From an uncultured delta proteobacterium (GTDB taxonomy: Bacteria; Desulfobacterota; RBG-13-43-22), in assembly GCA_963843145.1 (NCBI GenBank), contig CAWJJC010000028.1:1-64000 (forward strand): a stretch of 64,000 nucleotides of DNA. The letters run 5' to 3'. The stretch's first letter is position 1; every line of letters starts with the position of its first letter. Made by a program: the position numbers and the translations under genes. The notes under the pieces were generated by a model, which ran no database searches, was not told the DNA's origin, and saw nothing but the letters and a program-made list of their open reading frames with translations. Positions 1 through 52,244 of this stretch are shown piece by piece.

Positions 1-1628
1 AGATTCCAGGTACTAATCCTCGTTGGATTGATCGTGGCCACGCTTTGGTCCACCCCTTCCCTCCAGGCCGCCTCCAACGTCAAATTGAGCGGCGTCATGC
101 CTCTCCTTCGGGGACGTTAATTCATTCCAGATCAGTCCGGACGGCCGGTATGCCGTCTTATCTGGCAGATCAGGACACGGTTGGAGTAAATGAGCTTTAC
201 AGCGTCTTGTTAGGAGGGGGGCTCCCCCATTCGATTGGAATCCCCTTCTTCCCTCCGGTAGAACCGTTATTTCGTTTTCGATCAGCCCGGACAGCAGCCG
301 GGTGGTATATGTGGCCAACCAAGATACGGCTATGGTCCCAGAACTTTACAGCGTCCCCATCGGGGGTCCGGCAGCGGCAGTGACCAAGCTTAACGGGGCC
401 GTGGTGGCCGGCGGGAATGTGAGTGCCTACTTTCTGATCAGCCCGGACAGCAGTCGGGTGGTTTATCGGGCCAACCAACAGACGGCATCTGTCGCTGAAT
501 TATACAGCGCCCCCATCGGGGGTCCGGCGGGGTCCGAGGTCAAGCTCAACGGGGCCCTGGTACCCGGCGGGAATGTGACTTTCTTTCAGGTCAGCCCGGA
601 CAGCAGCCGGGTGGTTTATCTGGCCGACCAACAGATGGATAATGTGGTTGAATTGCACAGCGTCCCCATTGGGGTCCGGCGGGGTCTGGAGTCAAGCTCA
701 ACGGGGCCCTGGTGGCCGGCGGGAATGTACTTACCTTTCAGCTCAGTCCGGATAGCAGACGGGTGGTTTATGTGGCCAACCAAGATACGGCTACCGTCAT
801 TGAATTATACAGCGTCCCCATCGGGGTCCGGCGGGGTCCGGGGTCAAGCTCAACGGGGCACTGGTGGCCGGCGGGAATGTGAATGACTTCTTTCAGATCA
901 GCCCGGACAGCAGCCAGGTGGTTTATCGGGCCGACCAACAGACGGATAATGTCACTGAATTGTACAGCGTCCCGATTGGAGGTCCGGCGGCGGCCGGGAT
1001 CAAGATCAACGGGGCCTTGGTGGCCCTCGGGAGTGTTTATAACTTTCAGATCAGCCCGGATAGCAGCCGGGTGGTTTATCGGGCCAACCAACATACGGCT
1101 ACTGTCTTTGAACTTTACAGCGTCCCGATCGGAGGTCCAGCGGCGGCCGGGATCAAGCTCAACGGGGCCTTGGTGGCCCTCGGGAGTGTTTATAACTTTC
1201 AGATCAGCCCGGATAGCAGCCGGGTGGTTTATCGGGCCAACCAAGATACGGCTACTGTCTTTGAACTTTACAGCGTCCCCATCGGGGGGCCGGCGGGGTC
1301 CGGGGTCAAGATCAACGGGGCCCTGGTGGCCCTCGGGAATGTTAATACCTTTCAGTTCAGTCCGGACAGCAGCCGGGTGGTTTATCAGGCCGACCAAGAT
1401 ACGGCGACCGTCTTTGAACTTTACAGCGTCCCGATCGGAGGTCCAGCGGCGGCCGGAATCAAGCTCAACGGGGCCCTGGTGGCCAGCGGAAATGTGGGTC
1501 TTTTTCAGATCAGTCCGGACAACGGTCGGGTACTTTATGTGGCCGACCAGGACACAAACGATGTCTTTGAACTCTATATGACGTCCAATTATTTACTCCA
1601 CTTGCCTCTTATTCTGAGGCAGGGTTAA
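1..1628 (+). CDS. Secreted 10-repeat TolB/PD40-like beta-propeller protein (paralogue 1), 5' end outside the window, several frameshifts
   Basis: Frame 1 from base 1 reads RFQVLILVGLIVATLWSTPSLQAASNVKLSG (signal peptide). ORF pieces 45-383, 302-886 and 864-1628 carry ~51-aa repeats FQISPDSSRVVYxAxQxTxxVxELYSVPIGGPA. Ends YLLHLPLILRQG*. Confidence 0.85.
120..1580 (+). repeat. Intragenic ~153-bp tandem repeat (propeller blades)
   Basis: The unit starting aactttcagatcagcccggatagcagccgggtggtttatcgggccaaccaa at 1041 recurs almost identically at 1194 (period 153). Ten ISPD-type units in the gene. Confidence 0.9.
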
Positions 1629-1692
1629 GGGGACATTAAATCTACACCGACCTGTTTCAAAGGGATTAATTGCTTTAAGGAGAGGAGAGAAG

Positions 1693-3330
1693 ATGATGAG
1701 AAAGGATTGGCGATACCAAGTGTTTTTTGCGATTGCTTTGACAATGATCGCGCTTTGGTCCACCGCTCCCCTCCAGGCCGCCACCAACGTCAAATTGAGC
1801 GGCGTCATGCCCGCCTTCGGGAATATCACCTATTTCCAGATCAGCCCGGATGGCCGGTATGCCGTCTATGTGGCGGATCAGGACCACGGATGGGGTGAAT
1901 GAGCTTTACAGCGTCTTGTTGGAAGGGGGGCCCCCTGTTCGCTTGAATCCCCCACTTCCCATCGGTAGAAACGTCGTTTCCTTGCAGATCAGCCCGGACA
2001 GCAGCCGGGTGGTTTATAGGGCTAACCAAGATACGGCTACTGTCTATGAGCTGTACAGCGTTCCCATTGGAGGACCGGCGGCGACCGGAACCAAACTCAA
2101 CGGTGCCCTGGTGGCCGGTGGGAATGTTGCTCTTTTTCAGATCAGCCCGGACAGCAGCCGAGTGATCTATTACGCCGACCAACAAACGGCTAATGTCTTT
2201 GAGCTGTACAGTGTCCCCCTCGGAGGTCCGGCAGCCGCCGGAATCAAGCTTAACGTAGAGGTGGGGGTCCTCGGGAATATTGACAGCCTCTTTGTGATCA
2301 GCCCGGACAGCAGCCAGGTGGTTTATCAGGCCCATCAACAAAATGCCGTTATCAATGACTTTGAGCTGTACAGCGTCCCCCTTAATGGTCCGGCAACGGC
2401 CGGAATCATCCTCAACGGGGCACTGGGACCCCTCAGGCAGGTATTATTTTCAGATTAGCCCGGACAGCAGCCGGGTGGTTTACCTGGTCGACCAAGAGAC
2501 GGTGAACATCCGTGAGCTTTACAGCGTTCCGATCAAAGGTCCGGCGGCCGTCGGAATCAAGATCAACGGTCATCTGGTGCCCAATGGGATTGTCTACCAT
2601 TATACGATCAGCCCGGATGGCAGCCGGGTGGTTTATACCGCCGACCAGGAGACGAATAATGTTTTTGAGATTTATAGCGTCCCCCTCGGCGGTCCGGCGA
2701 CGGCCGGGATCAAGCTCAACGAGGCCCTGGGGGCCGGCGGGAGCGTTAATGGCGAATTCTTTGATTAGCCCGGACAGCAGCCGGGTGGTCTATCAGCAGT
2801 CGGTTAACGTCTTTGAGATTTACAGCGTCCCCCTCGGAGGTCCGGCGACGGCCGGGATCAAGCTTAACAAAATCCCCGTACTCAACGCAGTTTTGTCCAA
2901 TTTCAAGATCAGCCCGGACAGCACCCAGTTGGTTTATCTCGCCGACCAGGACACGGTTGGGGTTCAAGAGCTCTACAGCGTTCCTCTGACTGGTCCGGCA
3001 GTGGCCGGAATAAAGCTCAACCGGGCACTGGTACCCCCTGGAAATGCGTTTGATTTAAAGATCAAGTTAATCGGAGAGGTGTTCGATTTCAAGATCGCCC
3101 CGGACAGCAGCCGGGTGGCTTATCGCGCCAACCAGGATACGCCCCACGTCCGTGATCTTTACAGCGTCCCCACCAAAGGTCCGGCGGCCGCCGGAATCAA
3201 ACTCAGCGGCCCTCTGGTGACCGACAGGAATGTGTTTGAATATCAGATCAGCCCGGATAGCGGTCGGACGGTCTATATCGCCGACCAGGATACTGCCGGG
3301 GTCATGGAGCTCTATATGACCTCCTTTTCT
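1693..3330 (+). pseudogene. Secreted 10-repeat beta-propeller (paralogue 2), C-terminal tail cut off by ISL3
   Basis: Signal peptide MMRKDWRYQVFFAIALTMIALWSTAPLQA, same repeats across ORF pieces 1693-3366. Homology stops at ELYMTSFS (3330); the tail VYL(P)LLLNQG* resumes at 4731-4762. Confidence 0.8.
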
Positions 3331-4717
3331 GGTTCTTTCGTGAAAAAGTTGGAAACAAGTCAATAACCAACGGAAACCCTCATAAATAGAGGCGAAAATA
3401 AAATGCATCGGATGTGGACCGTATCTGGTATGGTTAATTTGCCGAAAGAACGATGCCAGAGGTCTAATCCGATGCAATTAGAGACTATCACAGAGTTGCT
3501 CCAGATACCAAATTTTAAAGTCAGCCATGTCATCCGAAACGACCAAACCAGTCTCCATTTTTTGCTGAAACCCATGGAGGAAACTCTGCCGGTCTGTTCC
3601 GGGTGTGGTAGCGCCTACCCCCTCAATCGAGTCTACCAGACCGGGCAGGTCATCGTGGAAGATCTGCGCTTTGCTGGGAAGCGGGTGTTCCTTTACGTGC
3701 CGAAGCGAAAAGTCATTTGTATGGAGGACGGCCGTATTCGGGTAGAGGAATTCGATTGGATCCGTGGCCGGTTTACCCAGCGGTTTGCCGATCAGCTCAC
3801 CCGCCTGACGGCCATCACTACCAACCAGGAAGCCGGCTGGTACCTGGGCTTGGATGACGAGGTCGTTTACCGGATAGACCGGCAGAACCTGGAAGCCCAG
3901 GCCCTTTTGAAACTGGATCCCGTCCCGGTCCCGAAGTATATGAGCGTGGACGAAGTGGCTTGGCAGAAATGGCATAAATACGTCACCAACGTGGTCGATA
4001 TTGAACAACGTAAGGTGATTTGGAATCACAACCACCGGGGTAAAGAGGTCCTCTCCAACTTTTATAGGGCCTTGGGACCCCCAGCCTGCCAACAGATCAA
4101 GGGCGTGGCCAGTGACGGGGCTCAGGGATACTTATCGGCCACTCGGGAACATGCCCCCGAGGCCTTGATCGTCTTGGACCATTTTCATGTCAAAAGCTAT
4201 CTCAATGAGGCGGTCAATACCGTCCGCAATGAGGAACTCAAAAAAGCCCGTCGGCAAAACAACAACGAATTATCCCAGATCCTCCATGGCAATCAGCGCT
4301 TCATTCTGCTGCAGAACAAAGTGACCACTAAAAAGCAGAACCTGTTGAGCAAACTGGCGGATCTCAATGAGCCGGTCTACCAAGCGATGCTATTAAAAGA
4401 GCAATTCCTTTCCATCTACCAGGCTGGGAATTGGAAGACGGCCCGGGTCAATCTTCGGGACTGGATCAAGGCCGCCATCCGGTCCAATCTCCCGCCTTTC
4501 GTAGAGCTGGGATACAAGTTTTTCAGGAAGAGACACTATGTCCTGAACTACTTCCGCTTAAAAATAACCACCGCCATCTCGGAGGGGATTAACAACAAGA
4601 TCAAGCGTCTCAAGCGCATGGCTTACGGTTACCGGGACGTTAAATACTTCTTACTCAAGATCCATCAGCATTGTGGACTGCTCAACCCCAGACTTCAAAC
4701 TTAAAGACGAAAGAGGG
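3331..4717 (+). mobile_element. ISL3-family insertion sequence
   Basis: Imperfect terminal IRs ggttctttcgtgaaaaagttggaa (3331) and ttcaaacttaaagacgaaagaggg (to 4717) around one transposase. No clear target duplication seen. Confidence 0.85.
3472..4704 (+). CDS. ISL3-family transposase
   Basis: Zn-finger CSGCG, SVDE, VASDG, LDHFHV and SEGINNKIKRLKRMAYGYRD motifs typical of DDE_Tnp_ISL3. Confidence 0.95.
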   Translation: MQLETITELLQIPNFKVSHVIRNDQTSLHFLLKPMEETLPVCSGCGSAYPLNRVYQTGQVIVEDLRFAGKRVFLYVPKRKVICMEDGRIRVEEFDWIRGRFTQRFADQLTRLTAITTNQEAGWYLGLDDEVVYRIDRQNLEAQALLKLDPVPVPKYMSVDEVAWQKWHKYVTNVVDIEQRKVIWNHNHRGKEVLSNFYRALGPPACQQIKGVASDGAQGYLSATREHAPEALIVLDHFHVKSYLNEAVNTVRNEELKKARRQNNNELSQILHGNQRFILLQNKVTTKKQNLLSKLADLNEPVYQAMLLKEQFLSIYQAGNWKTARVNLRDWIKAAIRSNLPPFVELGYKFFRKRHYVLNYFRLKITTAISEGINNKIKRLKRMAYGYRDVKYFLLKIHQHCGLLNPRLQT

Positions 4718-4856
4718 CATTTTTTTATCTGTTTATCTCCTCTGCTTCTAAATCAGGGCTAATAGGGATATGATCTCTAAGTAATTGAAAACTTTAATTT
4801 AATAATGCTCAATTGGATTAAACAGGCAAGCAATCAAGTTTCAGGAGGAGAAAGTT

Positions 4857-6612
4857 ATGGAAAAACAAGGGGCGATTAATAAAAGGGTTCTGCGATGGGT
4901 TGTAGGGGGTCTTTTTTTGGTTTTAAGCACCTTTCCTGGATGGCGGACCTTCAGGCCGCCGGCGTGGTCGGCACCGGGACTCCGGCCAGTTGCACCCAAT
5001 TAGCGCTCACATCGGCCCTCACCGGCGGCGGAACCGTTACCTTCAACTGCGGCGGGGCGGCGACAATCCTGGTGCTCAGCCGGATGAACATTACCGCGGA
5101 TACGGTTATTGAAGGCGGAGGTGCGATCACCGTCACCGGCGGATTAACCACCGGCCTTGTTTTACGTGATGGGGACCTCGCTGACCTTAAACGACATCAC
5201 GCTTGACGCCGCCTATGCCACGGATGGCGACGGCAGCGCGATTCGGGCCAGCGGACCTTTGACACTGAATAATGTCACCATTCAGAACAGCCAGACCACC
5301 GCTGCCTATTGCGGAGCAGCGATCTGGTCTAACAGTACGGTCAACATTTCCAACAGCACGTTCAACAAAAATACCGGAGGATCCGGTGGCGGGGCGATTT
5401 GCTCTGGATCGATCAATCCCACCACAATCCTGATCACGAATAGCAGCTTCACCAATAATAAAACGGTGGACCCCGTCCTTGGATTTGGCGGCGCGATTTT
5501 GGTAAACAATAATGCCAACTTGACCGTCGTGGACACTAGTTTCACCAGCAACTCGGCGCACTTTGGCGGCGCCCTTGCCGTTCGGCAAGGTGGAACGGCT
5601 ACCCTCCGCACCCAGAACCCCGCCAACAAGGTCCTTTTTCTAACCAACTCCGCCACGGAAGACGGCGGCGCTATCTATAACCAGGGGACACTGTCCATTT
5701 ACCAGGCGGAGTTGAATGCCAACCAGACGCCGCAAAACACACTTCTGGCGGGTTACGGAGGTGGAATCCACAACCAAGGCACCCTCACGCTCCATGACAG
5801 CCTTCTATCGGTAAACTTGGGCCGTTACGGAGGGGGGTTGTTCGTTGGGAACAACCCGAATGCCCAGGCGGAGGTGCAGCGAACAAGATTCGATCTAAAT
5901 TCGGCGGGTTTGTTCGGCGGCGGACTTTACACCAATACCGGTGGCAATGTTACGGTGGCGAACAGTTCCTTCAGGCTTAATAAAGCCGCCAGTGGCGCAG
6001 GAGTGGCGCGTTTCAACGCGCGCCTGGACATTTCCGATTCGTCGATCACCGACAACCAGGCCACCGGGGTCGGCGGCGGATTATATAGCGGAGCCGGACC
6101 GGCCTCCGACCCCACTTTTCTAAGCGCCACCAGTGTGACCATTGGCGGAAACACGGCCGGGGGAAATCTGGGCGGGGGGATTTATACCGCCGGCTACAGC
6201 GTATTTAAGAACCTCACCATCAAAGACAACACCAATGGCCTGTTATAACGATGGAACTTTTGTGACCACCCATTTGGGAAACAGTGTGCTGGATAATCCG
6301 GGGTACACCAATTGTGCCGGCACCGGAACACCGGGGATCAGTCTCGACGGCCATAATCTCTCCACGGACACCAGTTGTGCGGTGGAACAGAACGGCGTGG
6401 TCGTCCAGTTTGGTCCTCGGGAGATCAATGCCAATGGCGTCAATGCAACCCGTTATTACCCGCCTCTGGCCGGAAGCCCGCTGATCAACGCGGCCGCCAA
6501 CTGTCCGACCCTGGATCAGCGCGGCGCTCTGCGTCCGGACACCTGCGACATCGGCGCGGTCGAATACGGAGGATTGGCCTGGAACAATTTTCTACCTCTC
6601 ATCAAGAAATGA
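4857..6612 (+). CDS. Secreted beta-helix adhesin-like protein with choice-of-anchor Q C-terminal domain (frameshifted)
   Basis: RBS aggagg before ATG 4857. N-terminal VVGTGTPASCT...GGTVTFNCG, repeated GGAI/GGGI..N motifs, SPLINAA..CPTLDQRG..R...CDIGAVEY. Ends NNFLPLIKK*. Confidence 0.8.
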
Positions 6613-6664: not shown

Positions 6665-8280
6665 ATGAAGCCCAACCATCTGACCTTCGGAAGAATTGTT
6701 CCCCTTGGTTTCCTGATAGTGATTTTACTATCCGCCTGTCCCTCGATAGCCTCCACCAACCTCAAACTGAGCGGCGCCATGCCGGCCTACGGGGATGTTA
6801 CCGATTTCCTGATAAGCCCGAACGGAAGGGTTGCCGTCTATCAAGCGGACCAAGATTCGGACGGAGTTTTTGAACTCTATGGTGTTCTATTAGGAGGAGG
6901 AAGCCCCGTTCGCCTCAGTTCCCTTCTGGTCACCGGAAAGAGTGTATCCAATTTCGAGATCAGCCCGGACAGTTCCCGAGTGGTTTTTCGGGCAAATCAG
7001 GATACCCAATCCGTGATAGAGCTGTACAGCGTCCCGATCGGAGGACCGGCGACAGCCGTAACCAAGTTGAACGTCCCCCTGCCACTCGGGGGGAGGGCCT
7101 ATGGTAATATCAGCCCGGATAGCCGCCGGGTAATCTATACAGCCGACCACCAGGCCACCGGCGTCTTCGAATTGTTCAGCGTCCCCATCGCGGGGCCGGC
7201 AACAGACGTGATCAAGCTGAACGGCGCCCTGCCCCCAAGCGGCAGGGTGACCTCCTTTGAGATCAGCCCGGATAACAGCCGGGTCCTCTATTTGGCCGAT
7301 CAGGATCAGGCCGGTATCCAAGAATTATACAGCGTTTCACAAGGGGGACCGACAGGGAGCGGGGTGAAGCTCAATGGTAATTTGATCAACGGTGGAAGGA
7401 TAGGCGGTTGGCAGATCAGCCCTGACAGCCGCCGGATCGTCTACCAGGCCGATCAGCAAACCGTCGGCGCCCGTGAGTTGTTCAGTGTTCCCATCGGAGG
7501 ACCGGCGGCTGAGGGCATCAAACTGAACGGCACCCTGGCCCCCGGGGGATATACAGAGGATTTTCAGATTAACGCGGGAAGCACCGTGGTAGTTTACGAT
7601 GCCCGCCAGAACGGCATCCTCGAGCTGTTCAGTATCCCCATCGGAGGACCGACAGGCTCCGAGGTTAAAATTAACGGCGGTGGTAATTTGGATCGTTTCC
7701 GCCTCAGCCCGGATGGGCGTTGGACAATATATATGGCCGACCAACAAACGCCCGGCACACTCGAACTCTTCAGCGTCCCCATTGGAGGGCCGGCGACGTC
7801 AGGGGTTAAACTGAATAGACCCATGGTCCCTGGCGGACATGTATGGTATTTCCTGACCAGTGCGGACAGGAAAGAGGTAGTCTATGTCGCCGATCAGGAC
7901 ATCCCGAGTATTTATGAATTGTATGGTGTCCCCCTGGGGGGACCGGCAGCGTCTGGATTCAAGCTGAACGATATCCTGACCCCTGGTGGTAAGGTGGATA
8001 GTTTTCAGATCGCTCCCAACAGCAACCGGGTAGTCTACTTAGCCGACCAACAAATCCACGGGCTCTCTGAATTATATAGTGTCCCTCTCGGAGGTCCGGC
8101 AGCGGCTGGGATCAAACTCAACGGTACCCTGGCAATGGGCGGGATGTCTCCAGGTTCCAGATCAGCCCGGACAGCGGTCGGGTGGTTTATATCGCCGATC
8201 AGGATACTGCTGGCGTCTCGGAGCTCTATATGACCTCCGATTATTTGCTCCACCTGCCTCTGATCCTGAGGCAGCAATAA
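6665..8280 (+). CDS. Secreted 10-repeat beta-propeller (paralogue 3), one frameshift near 8140
   Basis: 522-aa ORF with signal peptide and the same, more diverged, repeats. The shifted frame continues to ELYMTSDYLLHLPLILRQQ* (stop 8278-8280). Confidence 0.88.
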
Positions 8281-8297: not shown

Positions 8298-10436
8298 ATG
8301 GGCCGTTTGATTTATTTATTGATCGTTTGCGGGGTTATGTTGGCAACGCTTGCGCCGATAAACGTGGCGGCCAATACCTACGTCGTGAACAGCATTGCCG
8401 ATGAACCGGATGCCGATTCAGCCGACGGGGTTTGCGCCGGCCCCAGCGGCGGATGTACGCTGCGCGCGGCGGTCATGGAGGCCAATGCCCATCCGGGAGC
8501 GGATTTTATCCTCGTGCCCGCCGGGACTTACGTTTTAACCCGCGTTGGAATCGATGCCAATGCCTCCCGGGGAGACCTGGATATCACCGAAGACCTCACC
8601 ATCCTGGGAATAGGAGGGCCGGTAATCATTGATGCCAACGGCGGTAACACCTTTGATCGGGCCTTTGAGGTTATCTCCGGCTCCCTGACCCTGCAAGACC
8701 TGACCATCCAGAATGGCAACACCACCGGACACGGAGGCGCTATTTATGCCCAAGGCAACCTGTTCCTGACGAACGTGTCGATAATAAACAACACGGCCGC
8801 CTTGAGCGGAGGAGGAATTTACAGCACAGGCTCAATTATCCAGATCGCCTCGAGCCAAATTAAGGGAAACAAGGCCCAGGGCAGTGGCGGCGGGGGAATC
8901 AGCTTGGAGTACATCGGCGTCTCTTTTCCGCAACTCACCATCTCCGGGAGCAGTTTCGTCGGCAATCAGGCCTCAGGGATACTTTCCACCGGTGGCGGCT
9001 TATTAATGTACGGGGTAACCGGCGTCATACAAAACAGCACTTTTCGCAACAATACCGCACAGGGGGATGGCGGAGGTCTGGCCTATATCGGCACCTACAT
9101 CGGGCTGACCCTGAATGTAACCGATTCGCTCTTCGACGGCAACACGGCCGCGGGCAGAGGCGGTGGTTTATATCTTTACGGCCAGACCACGATCCACGCC
9201 AGCCAGGTGGTCAACAATTCCGCTCCGGAGGCCGGTGGTATCTATGCTTTTTACGGAACGCATAGCCTGGATCAGGTCCAAGTGAGCTACAATACGGCCA
9301 CGGGGCAATACTGTGGGGGTATCGAGCTTGACAACGGTAACCTGGATTTGAATCGAGGGCAGGTGGATCACAACACCGCGATCCAATGGGGAGGTGGGCT
9401 TTGCGCCGGCGGTTCGGGAACGATTCACCTCTCCATAACGGACACCAACATTTTTGAAAATAGTGCCGCGCAGGGCGGCGGGATCTGGACGAGTATAGAA
9501 TTTATCGCCCAAACGAGTGCCATCTACAACAACTACGCTTTGACCGGGGGAGGGATCTATGCCACCGGACTCACCACGCTCAAAAACACAACGATCAGCG
9601 GCAACCGGGCCGGGGAGAACGGCGGCGGAATCTTTGCCGACACCACCGCCACCATAAGCATGAACAGCGTGACCCTGGCCGGCAACTGGGCCCGGACGGG
9701 GTTTCCGGCGTCTGGTAACGGCGGGGGCATTTTTGTCGCCAGTCCGGCAACAGCCAACGCCGCCGACACCCTCATCGCTTTGAACTCCAACTCCCTTATT
9801 GCCATCGCCTACAGCGATTGCTTCGGTGCGCTTAACTCAGGCGGATACAATTTCATCAGCTCCAGCAATGGATGCACGATCACGGGAGATCCTACCGGCA
9901 ATCAGGTGGGAGGGACCGGCCTTTCCAGGATCAATCCGCTACTGGGACCGCTACAGAACAATGGCGGCTACACCCTTACACAGGAACTGCTTACCGGCAG
10001 CCCGGCGATCGATGCCGGAAACAACGCTGTCTGTCCCGCAACCGACCAGCGCGGCATAGCGCGTCCCTATGACGGGAAAGGCAGCGGCACCCCCATATGC
10101 GACATCGGCGCCTATGAAGTCGCCGCGCATATAAGCCAAACGCTGCAATTCGGGCCGATTGCCAATAAACTGCGAACCGATTCGCCGTTCATGGTCACGG
10201 CAACGGCCTCCTCGGGCTTACCCGTCGACTTCAGCTCGAATACACCTTCCATTTGCAGCGCCACCAGTGCCCCCCTGGTCGCCGGGGTAAGTTCGGCGAT
10301 GGTAATTTTGAGCAGCGCGGGGATCTGCACCCTTGTAGGGCAGCAGCCTGGCAATTCGACATTTGATCCGGCCCTGGCCGTGACCCAAACATTCGGCGTG
10401 ACGGCCGACTTGTTTCTGCCGCTGATCTTTAAATAG
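8298..10436 (+). CDS. CSLREA-domain beta-helix protein with choice-of-anchor Q and Ig-like tail
   Basis: Signal peptide; YVVNSIADEPD...CTLRAAVMEAN; GDLDI; GGG repeats; LGPLQNNGG...SPAIDAG...DQRG...CDIGAYE. Ends ADLFLPLIFK*. Confidence 0.9.
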   Translation: MGRLIYLLIVCGVMLATLAPINVAANTYVVNSIADEPDADSADGVCAGPSGGCTLRAAVMEANAHPGADFILVPAGTYVLTRVGIDANASRGDLDITEDLTILGIGGPVIIDANGGNTFDRAFEVISGSLTLQDLTIQNGNTTGHGGAIYAQGNLFLTNVSIINNTAALSGGGIYSTGSIIQIASSQIKGNKAQGSGGGGISLEYIGVSFPQLTISGSSFVGNQASGILSTGGGLLMYGVTGVIQNSTFRNNTAQGDGGGLAYIGTYIGLTLNVTDSLFDGNTAAGRGGGLYLYGQTTIHASQVVNNSAPEAGGIYAFYGTHSLDQVQVSYNTATGQYCGGIELDNGNLDLNRGQVDHNTAIQWGGGLCAGGSGTIHLSITDTNIFENSAAQGGGIWTSIEFIAQTSAIYNNYALTGGGIYATGLTTLKNTTISGNRAGENGGGIFADTTATISMNSVTLAGNWARTGFPASGNGGGIFVASPATANAADTLIALNSNSLIAIAYSDCFGALNSGGYNFISSSNGCTITGDPTGNQVGGTGLSRINPLLGPLQNNGGYTLTQELLTGSPAIDAGNNAVCPATDQRGIARPYDGKGSGTPICDIGAYEVAAHISQTLQFGPIANKLRTDSPFMVTATASSGLPVDFSSNTPSICSATSAPLVAGVSSAMVILSSAGICTLVGQQPGNSTFDPALAVTQTFGVTADLFLPLIFK

Positions 10437-11967: not shown

Positions 11968-13061
11968 ATGAAAAGGCTGATAGTATGTTGTCTTTTGGTT
12001 TGGGGTATTGCCTATCCGGCAATCGGCGATCAACGGAGCGAAGCCGACACCAACGGGTCCATCCTGGTCAATGGTGTTGAACGCAAATTTGTTTACGCCG
12101 TGTCGACTTATTCTGCGCCGGCAACCGGACGTCCGCTGGTGATTCATCTGCATGGCGATGGCGGCAATATGGGCTTGAGCGCGGCCTGGAAGCAGGCCGT
12201 GCTGAATGATGCGAATGGCGCAGTGTTGCTTTCGGCGCAAGGGCGCAATAACATTCCCGCCGCGGCACCATTGACGTCGGCCTGGCGGTTTCGCATGGAT
12301 GAGGCGGGCGAGCCTATGATGATGTTGATTTTATTGATCAGCTGATCACACAGGCGACCGGCGGCGACACCCTCTTGGCAGCACGGATTGATCCGGACCA
12401 GGTGTATCTCGTGGGCGAATCGCGCGGCGCCGGGTTTGCCTATTTCCTGTACGCCGACCCGCGCACGCGCAACAAGATCCGCGCGATTGTGCCGCATCTC
12501 CGGCACGTTTTACTGCGATGGTGATGCGGGCGCGGGCACGCCGGGCACCCGTCGCGCCGGCAGCGATACAACCTGTGGTGAGGTGAGCGCCTTCGGCTAT
12601 CTGGGGGCCAAAGGCCTCGTTGTTCAGCGCGCCGGGCGTCACCCGCGCCGCGCATATCCTTGATATTCACGGGCAACTTCCGCCGAATGGTAGTGAAGGT
12701 GGGGACACCGCCCCGCCCGCGCTGGATGTCGATTTTGGGTCATCGACGTGGGCGGGCTGGGGCGAGGCGGCGGGGTGCTACACCGTGCAGGTAAGCTCGC
12801 AAACCGAGCAAACGCTGGCCCAGCCGATCGGCGGCAAAACGGTAAAAACCTACGCCTACAGCCAAGCCGAGAGGCGATCTGGCAACGCGGTGCGCCGGCC
12901 TGGATCTGACATTTTATGTGGTGCAAGGCGGCGGACATGTGCCGGGCGGATTTGAGCCGACGGCCTGGTGCTTCCTGAGCACGGTTGGCGGCACACCCAG
13001 CACCAGCGCCTGCCAGCTTCCAAGTCCTCATCGCCTTTACCTGCCGTCGATAAGGCGATAA
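11968..13061 (+). CDS. Secreted alpha/beta hydrolase (PHB depolymerase/esterase-like), multiply frameshifted
   Basis: Signal peptide; PLVIHLHGDGG; RIDPDQVYLVGESRGAG (GxSxG); VVQGGGHVPGG. The last frame ends HRLYLPSIRR* (13029-13061). Confidence 0.75.
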
Positions 13062-13097
13062 GAGCGCTGAGCCGAAATTTTAAGGTTTATAGCTCCA

Positions 13098-13180
13098 TTC
13101 AGGATACTGCCGGTGTCTTGGAGCTCGATATGACTTCTTTTTCTTTTCTCTATCTCCCTCTGATTTTAAATCAGGGATAA
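13098..13180 (+). pseudogene. Orphan 3' end of a beta-propeller paralogue
   Basis: QDTAGVLELDMTSFSFLYLPLILNQG*; DNA closely similar to 3286-3330 joined to 4731-4762. Confidence 0.8.
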
Positions 13181-21702: not shown

Positions 21703-22022
21703 CAGGCCGCCACCCCCTCCTGCAGGATATTACCAACTAGGGTGCTTTCGGACATGGGGCCGTGTTCAAACTCCTCCTGATCCATGACCACAGTGGTTAT
21801 GACGCGGTCGTTTTCGAAACCGACCTCCCAGGCCATATCCCGTATCCAGCGGTCTATCTCTTGATCCATCTGTTGGAGTACGATGCAGACGTCGAAATCG
21901 GAATCCCAGGCCGCCGTCCCACGGGCTCTTGATCCATAAGCCCAGACGCGCGCGCCGGGAAATCGCTCCCTGATCCGAGCAGTCAATTCCGTTAACACTC
22001 CCTGATCTTCATGGGTCAGCAT
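21702..22022 (-). CDS. Minimal nucleotidyltransferase (MNT)
   Basis: YGSRARG....SDFDV; NILQEGV. Confidence 0.9.
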   Translation of the reverse strand: MLTHEDQGVLTELTARIRERFPGARVWAYGSRARGTAAWDSDFDVCIVLQQMDQEIDRWIRDMAWEVGFENDRVITTVVMDQEEFEHGPMSESTLVGNILQEGVAA

Positions 22023-25710: not shown

Positions 25711-25714
25711 TAAA

Positions 25715-40662: not shown

Positions 40663-41392
40663 ATGCCTTGATAAGAGACAGGCGATTGTGGGGACGAGCG
40701 TGAAATCCTCCAAGGGGAATGCCCCACCGATAGCGTGAACCCGATCGCCGAGACTGCGGGCTCCGGGTGGCGCTCACATTGGCGCCTTGGGCATCGCCAA
40801 TGCAGCGTTGCCCCCATCGGCTCCACGTCCCGGTGGGATCCGCCGCAATTCGTCACCCACCAGGCCATTGGACACCGGCTGGAGTTTATTCCGCGGATGG
40901 CGGACTCGGGGTGACGCTGTAGGCAGGAAAAACCTTTTCGCCGAGACCCCACGGCCATACCAGATCTGAGGAGTACCCACCCAAAAGGCCGAAGCGTCAA
41001 AAAATAAACAACGGTTCTACTCGTATCATCAGCTTCTGTCTCAATGGGTTTCATAAGTGCCCCCTCGATTATCACTCGGGAACCCATCACGGACCGACAT
41101 CTATTTCCGCTCGGTTGGATAGTTCGCCTGATCCCAATCACTCCAGCCGCCCTTAAGGGCATAGACTTTTTTGAATCCCAGACTGATAAGCTTCCGTGCC
41201 ACACGGACACTGGTGATCTCCTTTAGTCAGGAGCAATAAAGAACAATGGTTTTTCCCTTTTAGATTAAACCTCAAAACACTTGACTTTCCCTGTTAAACC
41301 TGTCCCAAATATCTTTTTGGGCCTTATGGGCAGATAGGGTTTTTAGGGTGTCTGCCCGAGGTCTTTTATACTCCAATCGCAAAAGGTGGCTG

Positions 41393-44194
41393 ATGAAAAA
41401 GAACGTTAATAGCGCCATGATTTTGAGTTTAGTGGTGCTGTCAGTCTTGATTTCTCAAGGTTTGGCCGAGGCTCAGGGGCCGTCGATCTTCGGCGCTCAG
41501 ATGAACAATGCCATCGACGAGGCGGAGGGGCTGTCTCAGGCGTTGGCCGGCGGGGTTTACTGGGTTCGCTTTGATGCCTTCGAGTGGGACCGGATCGAAC
41601 CGGTGCCAACCGTCCCCTCCACCTTTCACTGGGAAAACGTCGATGAAAGCAGCCTCCAACGGGCCAACCAGAACGGACTCAACGTTATTGCCGTGGTCAA
41701 GTACACTCCCGACTGGGCCCAGAAATACCCCGGCTCGGCCTGCGGCCCGGTAAAAAGCAAGGCCTTCGCGGGCTTCGCCGAATTCTTGGCCGCAGTAGTC
41801 AACCGCTACAAAGGATCTCCCTACAACATCAAATACTGGGAGTTGGGTAATGAGATCGATGCCCCGGTCTACTATGAACGGAGCGTTTTCGGCTGCTGGG
41901 GAGATGGGGGTGATCCGTATTTCGGCGGAGAGTACTACGCGCAGATGCTCAAGGCGGCCTACCCGGCCATCAAAGCGGCCGATCCCGAAGCCCAGGTGCT
42001 GCTCGGGGGATTGGTCCTGGACAATCCCAACGAGATCCCTTATACGATCGCTCGCTTCCTCGAAGGGGTGCTTCGGGGCGGCGGGGGTCCATTTTTCGAC
42101 CTGGTAAACTTTCATTCCTACTCCTACTTCACCGGAGTCCCCGGTCTGCTCTATAATCCTAATTGGCCCGGTTCGCCCACTGCCCTTCCTGAAAAAACCG
42201 CTTTTCTTAAAAACATCCTCAACCGTTACGGGTGGGGGAATAAACCGCTGATTAATACCGAGACCGCCCTTTATTGCGATGTCAATAGCGACCCCTGTCT
42301 TGAAACCCAGGCCGTGTTTGTGGCCAAAGCCTACGCCGATGGAATCGCCTTGGGCCTTCAGGGATTGGTCTATTATGCCTTAAAAAGCGAGTGGCGTCTT
42401 ACCGGCCTGCTCCGACCCGACAACACCCCGCGGCCTTCCTACCTGGCCTTTAAGACCGCGGCCGACTTTTTAAGCCGCGCCCGGTATCGGGGTCCGGTCT
42501 CCGGGTACCCGGCCGGGATCTTCGGCCACACCTTCTGGCCTCAGGTGGGAACTTCCATCGAGGTGATCTGGGCAACGGATGGCGCCCCCCAATCCGTTCC
42601 CTTACCCTCCGGGGCCGAGGCCTTCGACCTTTACGGAACCCCCCTTTCGGTTTCCGGAGGCGCGATTACCGTCGATTACGGGCCGGTGTATATTCGAAAA
42701 TTTTATAACACCCTCAATCCGATATCTTCCATGACCTCCTTGCCCCCGGAGTCGCTTTTTACTGTTTCCCTTTCCTGGTCCGGCCAAGGCGCCGGCAGTA
42801 TCTCCAGTTACGACCTCCAGGTTCGGATGGGGCTCGATGGTCAGTGGACCGACCTCCTCCCAGACACTATCCTCACCAGCACTAATTACGACCTGGTTCC
42901 CGGAATTACCTATTACTTCCGTGTCCGGGCAAAGGATATTGATGGAAAGATAGAAGATTGGCCGGTTCAATACAATACTTCTACCTCCGTTGACTTTACC
43001 AAACCTGCTTCCTCGATGGCGGCCTTACCCGCGAATTCTTCGACCAGTATGATCTTGAATTGGTCGGGTTTCGATGCCCTTAGCGGAGTAGCCGGGTACG
43101 ATTTACAAGTGCGGGCGGGAACCGACGGCCAGTGGATCGACCTACTGGTAAACACGACGGCCACCAGCACCACGTACACTGTAACCAATGACACCACCTA
43201 CTATTTTCGTGTCCGTGCCAGAGACGTGGCGGGGAATGTCGAGGATTGGCCCTCGGACTACGATACCTTCACTCTGGTAGACACGGTGGCCCCTACCGGC
43301 AGTTTGGTCATTAATAACGGCGCACGCAGTACGACTTTTGCCGACGTTCAGCTTGCTCTCTCGGGAGAGGATGTCTCCGGAAAGGTTACCCAAATGAGAT
43401 TTTCGAATGAGGGGACCGTCTGGAGTGAATGGGAATCGTATGCCGGCTCGAAAAGCTGGACGCTGACCAGCGGGGATGGTTTAAAGACCGTTTGGGTCCA
43501 ATTCCAAGACGAAGCTGGAAACGTTTCTGTCCCCATCTCCAGCTCGATTACGCTTGACCTGGCCGCCGGGGGAGAATATGCCCTCTCGATTAATCAGGGA
43601 GCGCCCTTTACTAATCAAACCTTAGTTACTCTAACCATCGGTTCCAGGCCATTCACCTCTGAAATGATGGTCAGCAACGACGTAGGGTTTGCCGGGGCCT
43701 ACTGGGAGCCCTATAACAGCCTAAAGCCCTGGCAAATAAAGGGCTTCAAATATTTTGTCAGTCCCAGGGTAGTTTATATTCGATACAAAAATGCGGATGG
43801 AAGTATTTCGAGCAGTTATCAAGATGATATTATATTGGATGTGAATCCGCCGCTGGGCGATGTCCGGATAGTTGCACTAACCGCCAACCGGATCATAATC
43901 TCTGAGCCCGATAGGGGGTACCCCGTGAAATTGCCCAATGTCGGTTATAAAATCTTCCTCCCTGTGATTCAAAACCCTCTCCAGGGAACTTTGGTTAAAT
44001 TGGAATTAACCGCCAGCGACGATGTCAGCGGCGTAGGTCAAATGCTGATCAGTAATAATGCCGACTTCAGCGGGGCCTCTTGGGAGCCCTATAGACCCTT
44101 GAGGGACTGGGGGATGACCGGTTCAACGATTTATGTGAAGTTTAAAGATAATGCCGGGAATATTTCTAAAATTTATTCGGCCTCCAGGCCTTGA
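41393..44194 (+). CDS. Secreted clan GH-A glycoside hydrolase with FN3 and Ig-like repeats
   Basis: Signal peptide; YWELGNEID and LINTE catalytic glutamates; two YYFRVRA FN3 domains; repeated FxDxAGN.S modules; internal YKIFLPVIQN. Confidence 0.85.
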   Translation: MKKNVNSAMILSLVVLSVLISQGLAEAQGPSIFGAQMNNAIDEAEGLSQALAGGVYWVRFDAFEWDRIEPVPTVPSTFHWENVDESSLQRANQNGLNVIAVVKYTPDWAQKYPGSACGPVKSKAFAGFAEFLAAVVNRYKGSPYNIKYWELGNEIDAPVYYERSVFGCWGDGGDPYFGGEYYAQMLKAAYPAIKAADPEAQVLLGGLVLDNPNEIPYTIARFLEGVLRGGGGPFFDLVNFHSYSYFTGVPGLLYNPNWPGSPTALPEKTAFLKNILNRYGWGNKPLINTETALYCDVNSDPCLETQAVFVAKAYADGIALGLQGLVYYALKSEWRLTGLLRPDNTPRPSYLAFKTAADFLSRARYRGPVSGYPAGIFGHTFWPQVGTSIEVIWATDGAPQSVPLPSGAEAFDLYGTPLSVSGGAITVDYGPVYIRKFYNTLNPISSMTSLPPESLFTVSLSWSGQGAGSISSYDLQVRMGLDGQWTDLLPDTILTSTNYDLVPGITYYFRVRAKDIDGKIEDWPVQYNTSTSVDFTKPASSMAALPANSSTSMILNWSGFDALSGVAGYDLQVRAGTDGQWIDLLVNTTATSTTYTVTNDTTYYFRVRARDVAGNVEDWPSDYDTFTLVDTVAPTGSLVINNGARSTTFADVQLALSGEDVSGKVTQMRFSNEGTVWSEWESYAGSKSWTLTSGDGLKTVWVQFQDEAGNVSVPISSSITLDLAAGGEYALSINQGAPFTNQTLVTLTIGSRPFTSEMMVSNDVGFAGAYWEPYNSLKPWQIKGFKYFVSPRVVYIRYKNADGSISSSYQDDIILDVNPPLGDVRIVALTANRIIISEPDRGYPVKLPNVGYKIFLPVIQNPLQGTLVKLELTASDDVSGVGQMLISNNADFSGASWEPYRPLRDWGMTGSTIYVKFKDNAGNISKIYSASRP

Positions 44195-45543: not shown

Positions 45544-47547
45544 ATGTACTCAAAAAACGCCTTCCATCTGGTCTCCGATTTCACCCCCCAGGGCGATCAG
45601 CCCCAGGCCATCGAACAACTGGCCACCGGGGTGGAGCAGGGAATAAAACACCAGGTCCTGCTGGGGGTCACCGGGTCGGGAAAGACGTTCACCATGGCGC
45701 AGGTGGTGGCCAAGGTCCAGAAACCTACTTTGATCCTGGCCCCCAACAAGACCCTGGCCGCCCAGCTCTTCGGAGAGTTCAAGTCGTTTTTCCCCGAGAA
45801 TGCCGTAGAGTATTTCGTCAGCTATTACGATTACTACCAACCGGAGGCCTATTTGCCTTCGAGCGACACCTACATTGAAAAAGATTCCTCCATTAACGAG
45901 GAAATCGACAAGATGCGCCACTCGGCCACCCGCTCCCTGCTCACTCGCAGCGACGTGCTGATCGTGGCCAGCGTGTCCTGCATCTACGGACTGGGGTCAC
46001 CGGATGCCTACCAGGACCTGTTGCTGGCTTTGGAAACCGGGCAGGAGATCCCCCGGGATGCCGTTTTGGGCCAATTGGTCTCCATGCTCTACGAACGCAA
46101 CGATATCGACTTTCACCGGGGCACCTTTCGGGTCCGGGGAGACGTGGTGGAGGTCTTTCCTGCTTATGAGGAGGAACGGGCCCTTCGGATTTCTTTTTTT
46201 GGTGATTCCATCGAAAGCCTGTCGATCATTGACCCCCTTCGAGGAAAAACCCAGGAACGCCTGCCGCAGGTCCAGATCTTTCCCAATAGCCATTACGTCA
46301 CCAGCCCGGAGCGCAGGGAGCAGGCTTACCTGGCCATCGAGGCGGAACTTACCGAACGCCTCATCTACTTCCATGAGCACCAGAAATTAATCGAGGCCCA
46401 GCGGATTGGGGAACGGACCCGCTTTGACCTGGAGATGATGAAAGAGTTAGGCTACTGCCACGGTATTGAAAATTATTCCCGTCACCTGACCGGCCGGTTG
46501 GCCGGTCAGCCGCCGCCGACGCTGTTGGAATATTTCCCTCAGGATTTTCTGCTGTTTATTGATGAGAGTCATTTGGCGGTTCCTCAGCTTCAGGGCATGT
46601 ACCGGGGCGACCGTTCCCGCAAACAGACCCTGGTGGAGTACGGGTTTCGGCTGCCCTCGGCCCTGGACAACCGGCCCCTGAATTTTCAGGAATATGAGCA
46701 AATGGTCCGCCAGGTCATTTATGTCTCCGCCACGCCGGCGGAGTACGAAATGCGGCAATCGGGCGGACTGGTGGCGGAGCAGATCATCCGGCCTACCGGT
46801 TTGATGGATCCTCGGATCAGCGTCTTGCCGGCCACGGATCAGGTGGATCACCTGCTGCAGGCTATCAAGAAAAGGGTCGGCCAACAAGAACGGGTGCTGG
46901 TCACCACCCTGACCAAACGTCTGGCCGAAAGCTTGACCGATTATTACCAGGAAAAAGGGATCAAGGTCCGTTACCTGCACTCGGATATCAACACCCTGGA
47001 GCGCATCGAGATATTGCGGGATCTGCGCTTGGGGGAATTCGATGTCTTGGTCGGGATCAATCTGCTCCGGGAAGGGCTGGATTTGCCTGAAGTCAGCCTG
47101 GTGGCCATTTTGGATGCGGACAAGGAAGGCTTTCTGCGTTCGGCCCGGTCTCTGATTCAGACCTGCGGACGGGCGGCCCGGAATCTTTCGGGGGAGGTCT
47201 ATTTTTACGCCGATCAGGTCACCCGGTCCATGCAGGCGGCCATCGAGGAAACCGAAAAGCGGCGGAAACTGCAAAAGGCCTATAACCGGAAGCACCGGAT
47301 AACTCCCACGAGCATCAAGAAGTCCATTCAGGATATCATGGCCTCGGTCTACGAGGCCGACTATTACACCGTACCGGCGGCCAAAGAAGCGCAGGCGGAC
47401 TACGACGATCCGGCCAAGATACCGGCGCTGCTCAAAAAGCTGCAGAAAGAGATGAAGGCTGCGGCCAAGCGTCTGGATTTTGAAGAGGCCGCCGAACTAC
47501 GAGATAAAATTAAGGGGCTGCAGGAGAGGGAGCTTTTATGGAAATAG
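45544..47547 (+). CDS. uvrB: Excinuclease ABC subunit B
   Basis: [49 protein letters not shown] domain. Confidence 0.99.
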
Positions 47548-50101: not shown

Positions 50102-50254
50102 AATGGAAAATCGGGAATTTTGAACTGGACCATTCCTAATAAAGTCTAGAAAAGCAACGAACTCAACCTCTCCAGCGGATCCCTCCATCCGTCCCCTGTT
50201 GCCAGGGGCCGGAAGTTCCCTTGTTGGTTGTCCTACCCTAAACAGTGCGGGAGA

Positions 50255-52244
50255 TTATCTAATTATTAAGGGAAAATAAACCGGATAAAGCCGTTCCACC
50301 ACGTGCAGCGTCAAGGGGATTTGGGTTGGAGAGCCTCCGGTGTCGGGTGGGTCGGTCACGGTCAGCGTCAATGACCCGGCATAAGAGGCGGGGGACAACT
50401 GGGCGTAATTTAGCGGGGTGATGGTCAAGGTGGAGGGCGTGTTCCCGTTTATTGGAGAGACAGATACCCAGGTTCCTCCTGGTTCTGCCGTCCAGTGGAG
50501 GCTTTGGCCGGTTCCGATGTTTTTGGGCGTCACCTGAACCTGGGCCGGGCTGAGGCGTTGCTGCTGGAGGTCATAGAAAAACGTTACCTGTTTAGGGATA
50601 TTTCCCAAGATGTTGGCCGCCTGTCCGGTCCGGAGATAGGAACCCCTTCCGGTTCCCCACAAGACGCGGGCGTTGGAAGTACCGGGCAGGGTGTAGGCGA
50701 CCAGACCGGTATGGGCCGTGCCGATCACCACCTCCAGGTCCCCGTCCCCATCGATATCGGCCAGGGTGGGGGCCCCCAGGGCGCCGTCCCAATCCTGGCT
50801 GCTGCGGGGTAGATCCACGGCGTGCAGCAATTGGCCCAAGTGGTTCAAGATAATCAACTGGCCGCCCGCGTTGCTGCCCTTCTGGGTCCAGGTGGTGAAA
50901 AGCACCTCGGCTTTTCCGTCGCCGTCCAGGTCCGCCACGACCGGCTCCGAGGCGAAGCGGATAAAGCCTTCCGCCGGGTTGGTTACCTGAAAGGGCCAGT
51001 AGCCGTGCTCGGTGCGGTCCAGCCAGTAAGCATGGACCCGCCCGTCATAGGAGGCGTAAAGGATTTCCTTGAAACCATCTCCATCCAGGTCAACGACCAC
51101 CGGGTTGGGCTGGGCGGTTTCGATGACATTATAATCCTCGGACAGGGGTCCCGCCTGTCCCGTCGGGAATGGGTAGGCTCTCCCAGTTGAAAACGCTTCC
51201 GGACCAGCGGGTTCGGTCCTTATTCAGGATATAAGGCAGTTGATACAGGGAGCGGTAGGGATCGGCGCGGCAGTCATATTGGTTGCCGACAATGATAATC
51301 TCCGGGGTTCCGTCTCCATCCACGTCCGCGAAAGAGGGGGCGCTGTCCGCGAAGTTAGGCCGGGGTTCCAACGGTTCCTCTCCGGCCGTGCAGTTGGCGT
51401 AACCCCGAAGATCGACCGCCTGGCTCAGATGAAAGCCGACCCTGGCCCAGGGTTTATTCTGCCCGCCCACCTGGCCGTAAATCGACGCGGCCCGAAGCGG
51501 GGTCCCGTCCTGGCGATACCCGGCCACGTAATGGGTATCATTGGGACCGATCATTTCCAGTTGGCCGTCCCCATCCAGGTCGGCCAGCCCCACGTTTTCA
51601 TTGAAGCACCCGGCGGCATAGCCGTTGATATCGGAATCCGGCGAAAGTACCGGCCAGCCGGGACGCACCGAGCCATCGGCATTGAGAAGGAACCACTGGT
51701 TGTCCGGCCGGGTGGAGGCGGTCAGGATCTCCAGCGTCCCGTTGCCGTCCACATCGCCCACGGCCAGGCTGCGCAGTTCATTCCCGGGGGTAGGCTGCTG
51801 AGGCCAGCCGGGGCGAGGAGAGCCGTTGGCCTGATAGACCGACAGGTAGCCGCCGCTGTGGGCGGTGACGATTTCCGGGGACTGGTTGCCGTCCAGATCG
51901 GCCACCACCACCCCGGGCCAGCCCCGGCCTCCGCCGGGATTATCCACCACCCAGTGGTTGCTCCCGTCTTCCCCCTTGACCACCACGATCCGGTAGTCGG
52001 TCCAGATGACTTCCATTTTGCCGTCCTTATCCAGGTCGGCCACGGCCGGCGAGGAGTACCACCCGGTCCGGCACCAGGTGGACCGGCAGCCGCCCTTTTG
52101 CCACTTGAGGACCGGAGCGGAGAAAGCGGTGAGTTTTTCAGGTTGAGCCAGGAATAAAATTACGGTTAGACTGAAAACCAGCCCCACCTTGAACATATTC
52201 CGGGAATTTTTATTGAACCTATCCAATATGGAATCAATCGGCAT
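50255..52244 (-). CDS. Secreted FG-GAP repeat protein with BACON-like domain (frameshift near 51140)
   Basis: Repeated ADLDGDGxxE motifs; W+SVSP.NG.TP..LT domain. Ends LYPVYFPLIIR*. Confidence 0.85.

Follow-up and report, generated by a model that had tools for sequence, protein, structure and literature searches.

Why do exported proteins of unrelated folds, encoded within the same 64 kb of a bacterial contig, finish in the same short peptide? The stretch in question, here called the window, opens contig C28 and covers its first 64 kb; the contig belongs to a 5.35-Mb Desulfobacterota genome of 32 contigs (G000), for which completeness was estimated at 97.9% and contamination at 6.9%. A first-pass annotation of the window had listed nine copies of a peptide centered on L-P-L and had taken it for a shared C-terminal tag on otherwise unrelated exported proteins. 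All nine translate as described and lie where they had been placed, and the sharing of one tail by such proteins was confirmed across the genome by the counts given below. On balance, we lean toward the view that this tail is a new retention or sorting tag that needs no membrane helix and is recognized by a dedicated reader.

The core of the peptide, [YFWH][LMF]P[LIM][ILVM], was searched for in a greedy, non-overlapping set of 4686 open reading frames (ORFs) of at least 100 residues from the whole G000 genome. It matched 143 times, and 41 of these matches end 2 to 5 residues before the C terminus, compared with about 1.9 expected from the internal rate. The distance from core to end in these tails is 2 residues in 26, 3 in 7, 4 in 5, and 5 in 3. 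The remaining matches lie at least 15 residues from the C terminus (99) or at 8 to 10 residues from it (3). Counted from the proline, 32 of the 41 tails have L or I at position -3 and 33 have R or K at position +4, both positions being outside the search pattern, while L occupies position -1 in 37 tails and position +1 also in 37. The +4 residue is the last one, with the stop codon directly after it, in 26 tails; later residues in the others are mostly N, Q, S, or G. The resulting consensus is [LI]-[YF]-L-P-L-[IV]-x-[RK], with zero to three (mostly small polar) residues before the stop. A probably cytoplasmic ORF outside the window (C5:39187-40785), which ends in ..FLPLIQEIYL and whose N terminus presumably resembles YjeF, also matches, and this fits the roughly two matches expected by chance.

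Among 38 distinct DNA segments encoding the tail, all four proline codons are used (9, 14, 11, and 4 times), as are six leucine codons, and this synonymous variation shows that the peptide and not a DNA motif is under selection. The tail is a genuine protein-level C-terminal peptide, conserved as a peptide. The 41 genes that carry it are spread over 14 of the 32 contigs, including the four largest. Their GC content is slightly higher than that of other genes (0.564 versus 0.547), and GC at third codon positions (GC3) does not differ (p = 0.27).

Ten full-length carriers from G000 were scanned against Pfam and NCBIfam (E <= 0.01). They include Chlam_PMP right-handed beta-helices with a choice-of-anchor Q domain (NF041518), PD40 propellers, a LamG plus beta-helix architecture, a DUF7948/SBBP propeller, DUF4394/DUF6923, and a metallophosphoesterase, to which an FG-GAP and an fn3 protein from the window can be added. 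Apart from the tail, the carriers are unrelated in fold. The first-pass labels esterase and glycoside hydrolase were not confirmed: ORF 11968-12342 has no Pfam match, and 41348-44194 gave the matches listed in Table 1. No Pfam or NCBIfam model covers the last 15 residues of the 10 scanned carriers, the peptide perhaps being too short for HMMER scoring. NF041518 is matched by 5 of the 10 at 27 to 89 bits (cutoff, 25), and the match stops 13 to 16 residues before the C terminus; choice-of-anchor Q membership applies to the beta-helix carriers only and not to the tail itself. In the whole genome, NF041518 has 22 matches.

The tail is associated with export. In a crude hydrophobicity-based test, which requires that no membrane helix follows, a signal-peptide-like N terminus was found in 18 of the 41 tail ORFs and in 700 of the 4645 others (odds ratio, 4.4; p = 1e-5), so the enrichment among signal-peptide proteins anticipated in the first pass is present with this predictor. 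By eye, such N termini occur in the window at 1693, 6665, about 8301, 11968, 13193, 41348, and 52244. In 18 Chloroflexota loci chosen around tail matches, the test was passed by 20 of 25 tail ORFs, whose genes are long and intact there, compared with 30 of 207 neighbors, and three more tail ORFs have a signal peptide but were scored with a later helix. The structure of the tail was examined in an AlphaFold2 model of a 592-residue beta-helix carrier, built from a 38-sequence alignment. The mean predicted local distance difference test score (pLDDT) was 87 and that of the beta-helix was above 90, while residues 528 to 553 and 572 to 592 scored below 50 and had no secondary structure. The low scores of the last 21 residues suggest that the tail does not pack on the carrier fold, and the model lends no support to the earlier proposal of a beta-strand tag.

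Related proteins indicate what else may stand at this position. The C-terminal 213 residues of the beta-helix carrier were compared with a large protein collection, and among the best 120 matches listed, 66 end in the same tail by pattern. Variants missed by this count were seen by eye, for example with A replacing P in P0004, P0043, and P0080. The ends of the tail-less homologues, also judged by eye, are PEP-CTERM-like (P0111, from a cyanobacterium), dockerin-like repeats, membrane helices, or nothing past the choice-of-anchor Q domain, and no homologue with both the tail and another anchor was seen among those listed. In a second set of 80 loci from species-representative genomes, 13 of which run off before the stop, 11 were flagged as tailed. 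Ten of them are in Chloroflexota-labeled records (Leptofilum, Promineifilaceae, Caldilineaceae, Brevefilum, Litorilinea, Ardenticatenia, and Anaerolineales), and the remaining one is on a 3.4-kb contig labeled Gammaproteobacteria. By eye, four more Chloroflexota loci have tail variants (L021, L025, L049, and L055), and gammaproteobacterial and betaproteobacterial homologues end in IPTL-like signals (L043 and L100). Choice-of-anchor is the NCBI label for domains next to interchangeable C-terminal sorting signals, and the pattern of homologue ends fits the meaning of this label. The tail takes the position, or anchor slot, where other lineages have known C-terminal sorting signals. Separately, we noted an unusual fusion of scaffold and sorting enzyme in P0095 (Anaerolineales), where a sortase domain (PF04203) is joined to the C terminus of a beta-helix homologue; loci L033, L045, and L053 (Anaerolineales/Chloroflexota records), which end in ..LTLITC..-type sequences, are likewise sortase-fused.

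The UvrB protein encoded in the window (45544-47544) is 80 to 87% identical to proteins named Deltaproteobacteria, Desulfobacterota, or Thermodesulfobacteriota bacterium. This similarity identifies the host as a sulfate-reducer-type member of the Desulfobacterota, in agreement with the deltaproteobacterial host suggested at first, and it places the window's tails on the same contig as a Desulfobacterota-type uvrB. For counts in other genomes we used a strict DNA pattern, [YF]-[LF]-P-[LF]-[IVM]-x-[KNSRHQ]-stop, with the same pattern reversed as a control (given in parentheses after each count). In a phylum sample of 301 genomes from 98 families, G000 itself had 37 (1) matches, and G169, from the same genus, had 6 (1), all six reading as genuine tails. 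All other genomes of the sample had at most 6, mostly with similar controls; a few real copies are possible in G078 with 5 (1) and in G180 and G246 with 5 (2).

Within the host family, two more genomes of the host genus (g1) had 23 (0) and 10 (2) matches (G517 and G518), and two genomes of genus g202 had 11 (3) and 3 (1) (G519 and G520). The count for G516 of genus g201 was ambiguous at 7 (6), and 13 of the 14 genomes of genus g2 were counted, with 0 to 4 (1 to 6). As a second check, choice-of-anchor Q proteins with a complete C terminus were inspected in the family genomes. They end in the tail in 6 of 10 cases in g1 other than G000, in 3 of 3 in g201, and in 5 of 5 in g202 (a variant in one case) but in 0 of 5 in g2, and the domain itself is present in all seven genomes of the three tail-bearing genera versus 3 of the 14 g2 genomes. 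Across these seven (G000, G169, G517, G518, G516, G519, and G520), the tail is found on many unrelated families. Intact orthologues of the window's FG-GAP protein, with 664 to 733 residues and 79 to 93% identity, occur in G169, G518, G517, and G519 and retain the tail, which reads ..VYFPLIIR in 4 genomes of the host genus and ..IHLPLVLR in a second genus; the sole g2 homologue (39% identity) has a different C-terminal end. A search for the metallophosphoesterase carrier across the host family returned distant paralogues only. The tail is common to three genera of one Desulfobacterota family and is not a single-genome oddity. One g2 genome (G031) encodes three choice-of-anchor Q proteins whose C termini are short hydrophobic stretches without proline (..EVYLLLLSSD, ..NNLFLLLL, and ..SVWLLLGE, at C98:6602-6787, C180:9179-9337, and C82:48006-48077), which may be a variant of the tail unseen by the search pattern.

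Tails of this kind had been described in the first pass as common on Chloroflexota surface proteins, and this proved true of only part of that phylum. Strict counts were 22 (0) in Brevefilum, 14 (0) in a member of the Promineifilaceae, 13 (0) in Leptofilum, 13 (2) in a member of the Chloroflexia, 12 (4) in a member of the Caldilineaceae, and 7 (1) in a member of the Anaerolineae, compared with only 3 in Litorilinea, and with no enrichment in one Ardenticatenia and one Thermomicrobiales genome. An even sample of 201 Chloroflexota genomes, including three unpublished ones that are all tail-less, contained 10 genomes with at least 8 strict matches and controls of at most 2, six more with 5 to 6, and 133 with none. 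Tail-rich genomes of the sample include G303 with 22 (0), G413 with 21 (2), G329 with 17 (1), G431 with 15 (0), G514 with 14 (0), and G381 with 13 (0). The distribution is patchy, a minority of Chloroflexota genomes being enriched. In five genomes of other phyla (Planctomycetes, Cyanobacteria, Acidobacteriota, Actinomycetota, and Bipolaricaulota), only background counts were obtained. A 0.7-Mb genome labeled Gammaproteobacteria (G305, locus L032) had 3 strict matches against 0 in the control, one match lying on a 3.4-kb contig, and these may be mis-binned Chloroflexota DNA or may mark another recipient lineage. The five best species-representative matches of the G000 beta-helix are all Chloroflexota records. 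Together with the occurrence of the same consensus in two unrelated phyla, this suggests that gene transfer took place. Given the near-native composition of the tail genes and the three genera that share the tail, the acquisition would not be recent.

Candidates for a reader were sought among known enzymes and around the tail genes. Sortase (PF04203) has no match in G000 and none in the tail-rich Chloroflexota G303 and G381, though 141 of the 201 sampled Chloroflexota have one, and its absence from these three genomes led us to reject it. Exosortase (PF09721), which is present in 2 of the 7 tail-bearing and 3 of the 14 tail-free genomes of the host family, does not track the tail and was rejected as well. 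The tail is independent of both enzymes. The Pfam-annotated proteins of the tail-gene islands (secreted TPR, FG-GAP, DcrB-like, and Lcl_C-domain proteins and an AMP-binding enzyme) include none that is machine-like, and in G381 the tail genes are located between gap/pgk and other housekeeping genes. Literature searches on peptide strings, Chloroflexota, sorting signals, choice-of-anchor, sortase, and monoderm found no paper naming the tail, as judged from listings and abstracts; the peptide strings matched only animal antimicrobial peptides and unrelated papers. With neither a family model nor a paper naming it found, the tail appears to be uncharacterized, as first supposed. The multilayered envelope of Litorilinea has been described, in passages that do not mention the tail (PMC13319060).

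The carriers appear to be Sec-exported surface or extracellular proteins, and the most likely role of the tail is to signal retention or sorting once they have been exported; its position, its cargo, and its association with export support this role. As an exposed, flexible peptide it would be recognized by a putative envelope component, with cleavage or attachment possibly accompanying recognition. That the L-P-L core stays nearly invariant across phyla favors its recognition by a specific protein over mere greasiness. PDZ-type binding recognizes a free carboxylate in a fixed register; a mode of this kind is disfavored, since extensions of one to three residues are allowed. The tag, typical of a subset of the Chloroflexota, would have crossed on carrier genes into the three-genus Desulfobacterota clade. 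We infer both the sorting or retention function and the existence of a dedicated reader, and on this evidence we regard a tag with such a reader as somewhat probable.

Several results weigh against this interpretation. No reader was found: the neighborhoods of the 41 G000 tail genes (445 ORFs within 8 kb) gave only signaling paralogues and Liv-type ABC operons, and the 6 such operons near tails are weak evidence because the genome has about 27. Two island membrane proteins were rejected after comparison across 21 family genomes, a DcrB-like one found only in G000 and one tail-free genome and a 202-residue one found only in G000 and part of G169. The Chloroflexota neighborhoods (382 ORFs at 50 loci) share only a generic ABC-2 transporter, in two genomes. 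The export or attachment machine of the first-pass annotation is unsupported by any co-occurring gene found in G000, in its family, or in the Chloroflexota neighborhoods, and the part of that interpretation with support is the shared, apparently uncharacterized tail of exported proteins. Moreover, 23 of the 41 G000 tail ORFs have no recognizable signal peptide and several are split across frames, many of the 23 being N-terminally truncated fragments. The many fragmented carriers make decay of the tag in this host, or indel errors in the assembly, possible. The Desulfobacterota are double-membraned. The Chloroflexota are regarded as single-membraned (in the introduction of PMC13319060), and a transfer between envelopes so different would be explained more easily if no dedicated machine were needed; no obvious co-transferred machine was seen.

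The main rival explanation starts from this last point. It holds that the tail is an autonomous membrane anchor, a short hydrophobic, proline-kinked peptide, followed by a basic residue, that by partitioning into the cytoplasmic membrane's outer leaflet holds exported proteins on the cell with no machine at all. In its favor are the failure to find a co-occurring machine and the persistence of the tag in both phyla, the cytoplasmic membrane being the main envelope structure they are expected to share. The peptide is predicted to be flexible and unpacked, and FLPLILR and FLPLIGR start the membrane-active peptides crabrolin and temporin A. Against such an anchor, a generic hydrophobic sequence should drift, yet L-P-L is nearly fixed across two phyla; seven or eight residues would partition only weakly into a membrane by the interfacial hydrophobicity scales; and so sharply patchy a distribution would sooner be expected where the tag has a specific partner. 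We consider this explanation unlikely.

Somewhat less likely again, in our view, is that the tail is not a localization signal. It could be a small C-terminal module that is mobile and serves some other purpose, for example protection against C-terminal proteolysis, oligomerization, or a mark of secretion competence or quality control, or it could be a vestige of horizontally acquired genes that are decaying here. The fragmented or frameshifted state of many G000 carriers would be accounted for, as would the failure to find a reader and the transposases of the tail islands (ISL3 and ISAzo13 in the window and mobile-element-like duplicates on C15). Against this explanation, the tail is kept in intact orthologues of two genera, sits on many unrelated families in seven genomes, and shares its place with the known sorting signals of homologues, and among intact genes its link to signal peptides is strong (20 of 25). 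The near-native GC and unchanged GC3 of the tail genes argue against recent import.

That a known sorting enzyme, whether sortase, exosortase, or archaeosortase, has the tail as a degenerate form of its substrate signal is very improbable. The L-P dipeptide recalls LPXTG, and sortase is fused to some Anaerolineales beta-helix homologues, but G000, which is nearly complete, has no sortase, exosortase does not follow the tail in the host family, and the tail has neither a membrane helix nor T-G, so that this explanation is already largely refuted. Least credible of all, and already refuted, is a repeated 3' DNA motif or an artifact of assembly or binning, for although the window starts at the end of a contig, where repeats and frameshifts are many, and the genome has some estimated contamination, the tails vary in synonymous codons, lie on many contigs, one with a Desulfobacterota-type uvrB, and recur in six other family genomes.

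To our knowledge, every characterized prokaryotic C-terminal sorting signal needs a membrane helix or a folded domain. It is possible, though we would not count on it, that among such signals of Sec-exported bacterial proteins the tail is the first to have a length of only about 8 residues and no membrane helix, that a new kind of machine reads it, and that the system as a whole is portable between Chloroflexota and Desulfobacterota envelopes. There is a fair chance that the mechanism is of a new kind; the tail itself would be a further C-terminal sorting or anchoring signal. If a dedicated reader exists, the clean split within one family, between the 7 tail-bearing genomes and the 14 g2 genomes (13 of them checked), should point to its gene, and the narrow Desulfobacterota clade is a natural experiment in which close relatives with and without the tag can be subtracted from one another. 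A conserved tag of eight residues, present on dozens of exported proteins in a genome, would amount to a novel means of marking surface proteins. Protein retention on the unusual multilayered envelopes of the Chloroflexota is poorly understood, and the tail could improve the prediction of localization in abundant environmental lineages and might serve as a very small display tag.

The tail copies of the window and the genes that carry them are collected in Table 1.

Table 1. Tail copies, carrier genes, and transposases in the window
Feature	Position	Strand	Evidence or remark
Tail copy 1, YLLHLPLILRQG-stop	1590-1628	+	End of PD40 propeller fragment, ORF 864-1628 (translation; PD40 Pfam match)
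ISL3-family transposase	3403-4704	+	Pfam DDE_Tnp_ISL3, E 1.7e-59; between PD40 gene fragments and tail remnant 2
Tail copy 2, degraded, one base short of VYLPLLLNQG-stop	4731-4762	+	Three-frame translation
Beta-helix (Chlam_PMP repeat) gene, two frames	5157-6612	+	Choice-of-anchor Q match 6445-6567
Tail copy 3, NNFLPLIKK-stop	6583-6612	+	End of beta-helix gene 5157-6612
PD40 propeller gene, signal peptide, one frameshift near 8140	6665-8280	+	
Tail copy 4, YLLHLPLILRQQ-stop	8242-8280	+	Reached only past the frameshift near 8140 in gene 6665-8280
Beta-helix protein, signal peptide MGRLIYLLIVCGVMLATLAPINVAANT	8301-10436	+	Choice-of-anchor Q domain 9933-10121
Tail copy 5, DLFLPLIFK-stop	10407-10436	+	End of beta-helix gene 8301-10436
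Fragmented exported gene, signal-peptide-like start at 11968	11968-13180	+	Tail copies 6 and 7, in different frames
Tail copy 6, HRLYLPSIRR-stop	13029-13061	+	
Tail copy 7, FLYLPLILNQG-stop	13145-13180	+	
ISAzo13-family transposase	13910-14935		Bounds the tail-gene island
Exported fn3-containing protein, 948 residues	41348-44194	+	Pfam: fn3, weak CbhB and OmpL47 matches
Tail copy 8, internal, YKIFLPVIQN	43946-43975	+	Followed by 73 further residues, OmpL47-like domain
FG-GAP protein, signal peptide, frameshifted here	50255-52244	-	Orthologues intact in 4 relatives
Tail copy 9, LYPVYFPLIIR-stop	50255-50290	-	

The first 13.8 kb of the window form a tail-gene island of PD40 and beta-helix genes broken by frameshifts. 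Frameshifted or truncated genes in the window are 864-1628, 5157-6612, 6665-8280, 11968-13180, and 50255-52244. The PD40 fragment that ends in tail copy 1 has an intact 547-residue paralogue with the same tail elsewhere in the genome (C27:130535-132178). Copy 2, just 3' of the ISL3 transposase, reads VYL-LCF-stop in one frame and ..SPLLLNQG followed by two stops in another. None of the fragments of the gene that contains copies 6 and 7 could be assigned to a Pfam family. The OmpL47-like match behind the internal copy 8 scored 35 bits, below the cutoff of 40. A paralogue of this 948-residue fn3 protein (C17:125613-127004) ends in ..FWFPLIRKTTP, soon after the motif, and the window's protein may have gained a further domain after what was once its tail. 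Another tail island of the genome, on C15, has duplicated mobile-element-like genes, and the homologues of tail genes in G169 occupy a different chromosomal context. A SecA-sized gene is split in this sister genome, which leaves indel errors in the assemblies a serious alternative to genuine decay. A block of about 15 kb, with a tail-bearing beta-helix gene of 589/592 residues, a Liv-type ABC operon, and oxidoreductase genes, is present on both C12:1-20000 and C26:3600-20800 and may be a real duplication or assembly redundancy.

Other genes of the window encode different functions. An anti-phage gene set lies on the minus strand at 18563-28792 and encodes a phospholipase-D/helicase protein (NF042964, full length) together with proteins of the DUF1156 (NF042963) and DUF499 (NF042962) types; one in-frame stop at 23999-24001 breaks the gene of the DUF1156 protein, which continues beyond it in the same frame. 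The window also contains genes for a PAS-GGDEF-EAL protein (14972-16261), an AbiEii toxin-family protein (32359-33285), a TRAP transporter (DctP and DctM, 55479-58359), and a Ser/Thr kinase with TPR repeats (59275-61089).

Compared with known systems, the tail resembles the LPXTG signals of sortase in its place at the C terminus of Sec-exported surface proteins with many different folds, in containing L-P, and in its basic end. It differs in that none of the 41 tails has T-G after L-P-x, there is no membrane helix, and all 41 have only 2 to 5 residues beyond the core. With PEP-CTERM (the exosortase signal), IPTL-CTERM, MYXO-CTERM, and GlyGly-CTERM, it shares the place after choice-of-anchor domains. 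Signals of the PEP-CTERM type consist of a motif, a membrane helix, and an Arg-rich end and are read by polytopic membrane enzymes, and the tail is without all three of these elements. The earlier separation of the tail from LPXTG and PEP-CTERM thus stands, with no helix in the tail, no sortase in the genome, and no tracking by exosortase. The C-terminal domain (CTD) of the type IX secretion system (T9SS) is likewise a signal on diverse Sec substrates that has no membrane helix. This CTD, found in the Bacteroidota, is a folded domain of roughly 70 to 100 residues, whereas the conserved part of the tail has about 8, and no CTD model matched the ten scanned carriers; the tail is, as already noted in the first pass, too short for a T9SS CTD and ends in a nonaromatic residue.

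The beta-signal read by BAM, the machinery that assembles beta-barrels, is also a short hydrophobic C-terminal peptide. In outer membrane proteins it has a terminal aromatic residue and alternating hydrophobic residues and is found on beta-barrels, while the tail ends in R, K, N, Q, or G, has contiguous hydrophobic residues around its proline, and sits on carriers with soluble folds. Type I secretion substrates are without an N-terminal signal peptide, unlike the tail carriers (18 of 41 in G000 and 20 of 25 in the Chloroflexota loci). The eukaryotic tags KDEL and PTS1 (SKL) are very short C-terminal peptides on unrelated cargo with one receptor each; they belong to another kingdom and differ in compartments and sequences, and the likeness is one of analogy only. 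Among archaea, passages of one paper describe a bipartite C-terminal motif in Sulfolobus AmyA that keeps the secreted enzyme on the membrane, and deleting its charged end released the enzyme (PMC5023256). That motif, like the tail, combines a C-terminal hydrophobic stretch with charged residues, but as described there it has 18 hydrophobic residues, enough to span a membrane, and it has no conserved L-P-L core (PMC5023256).

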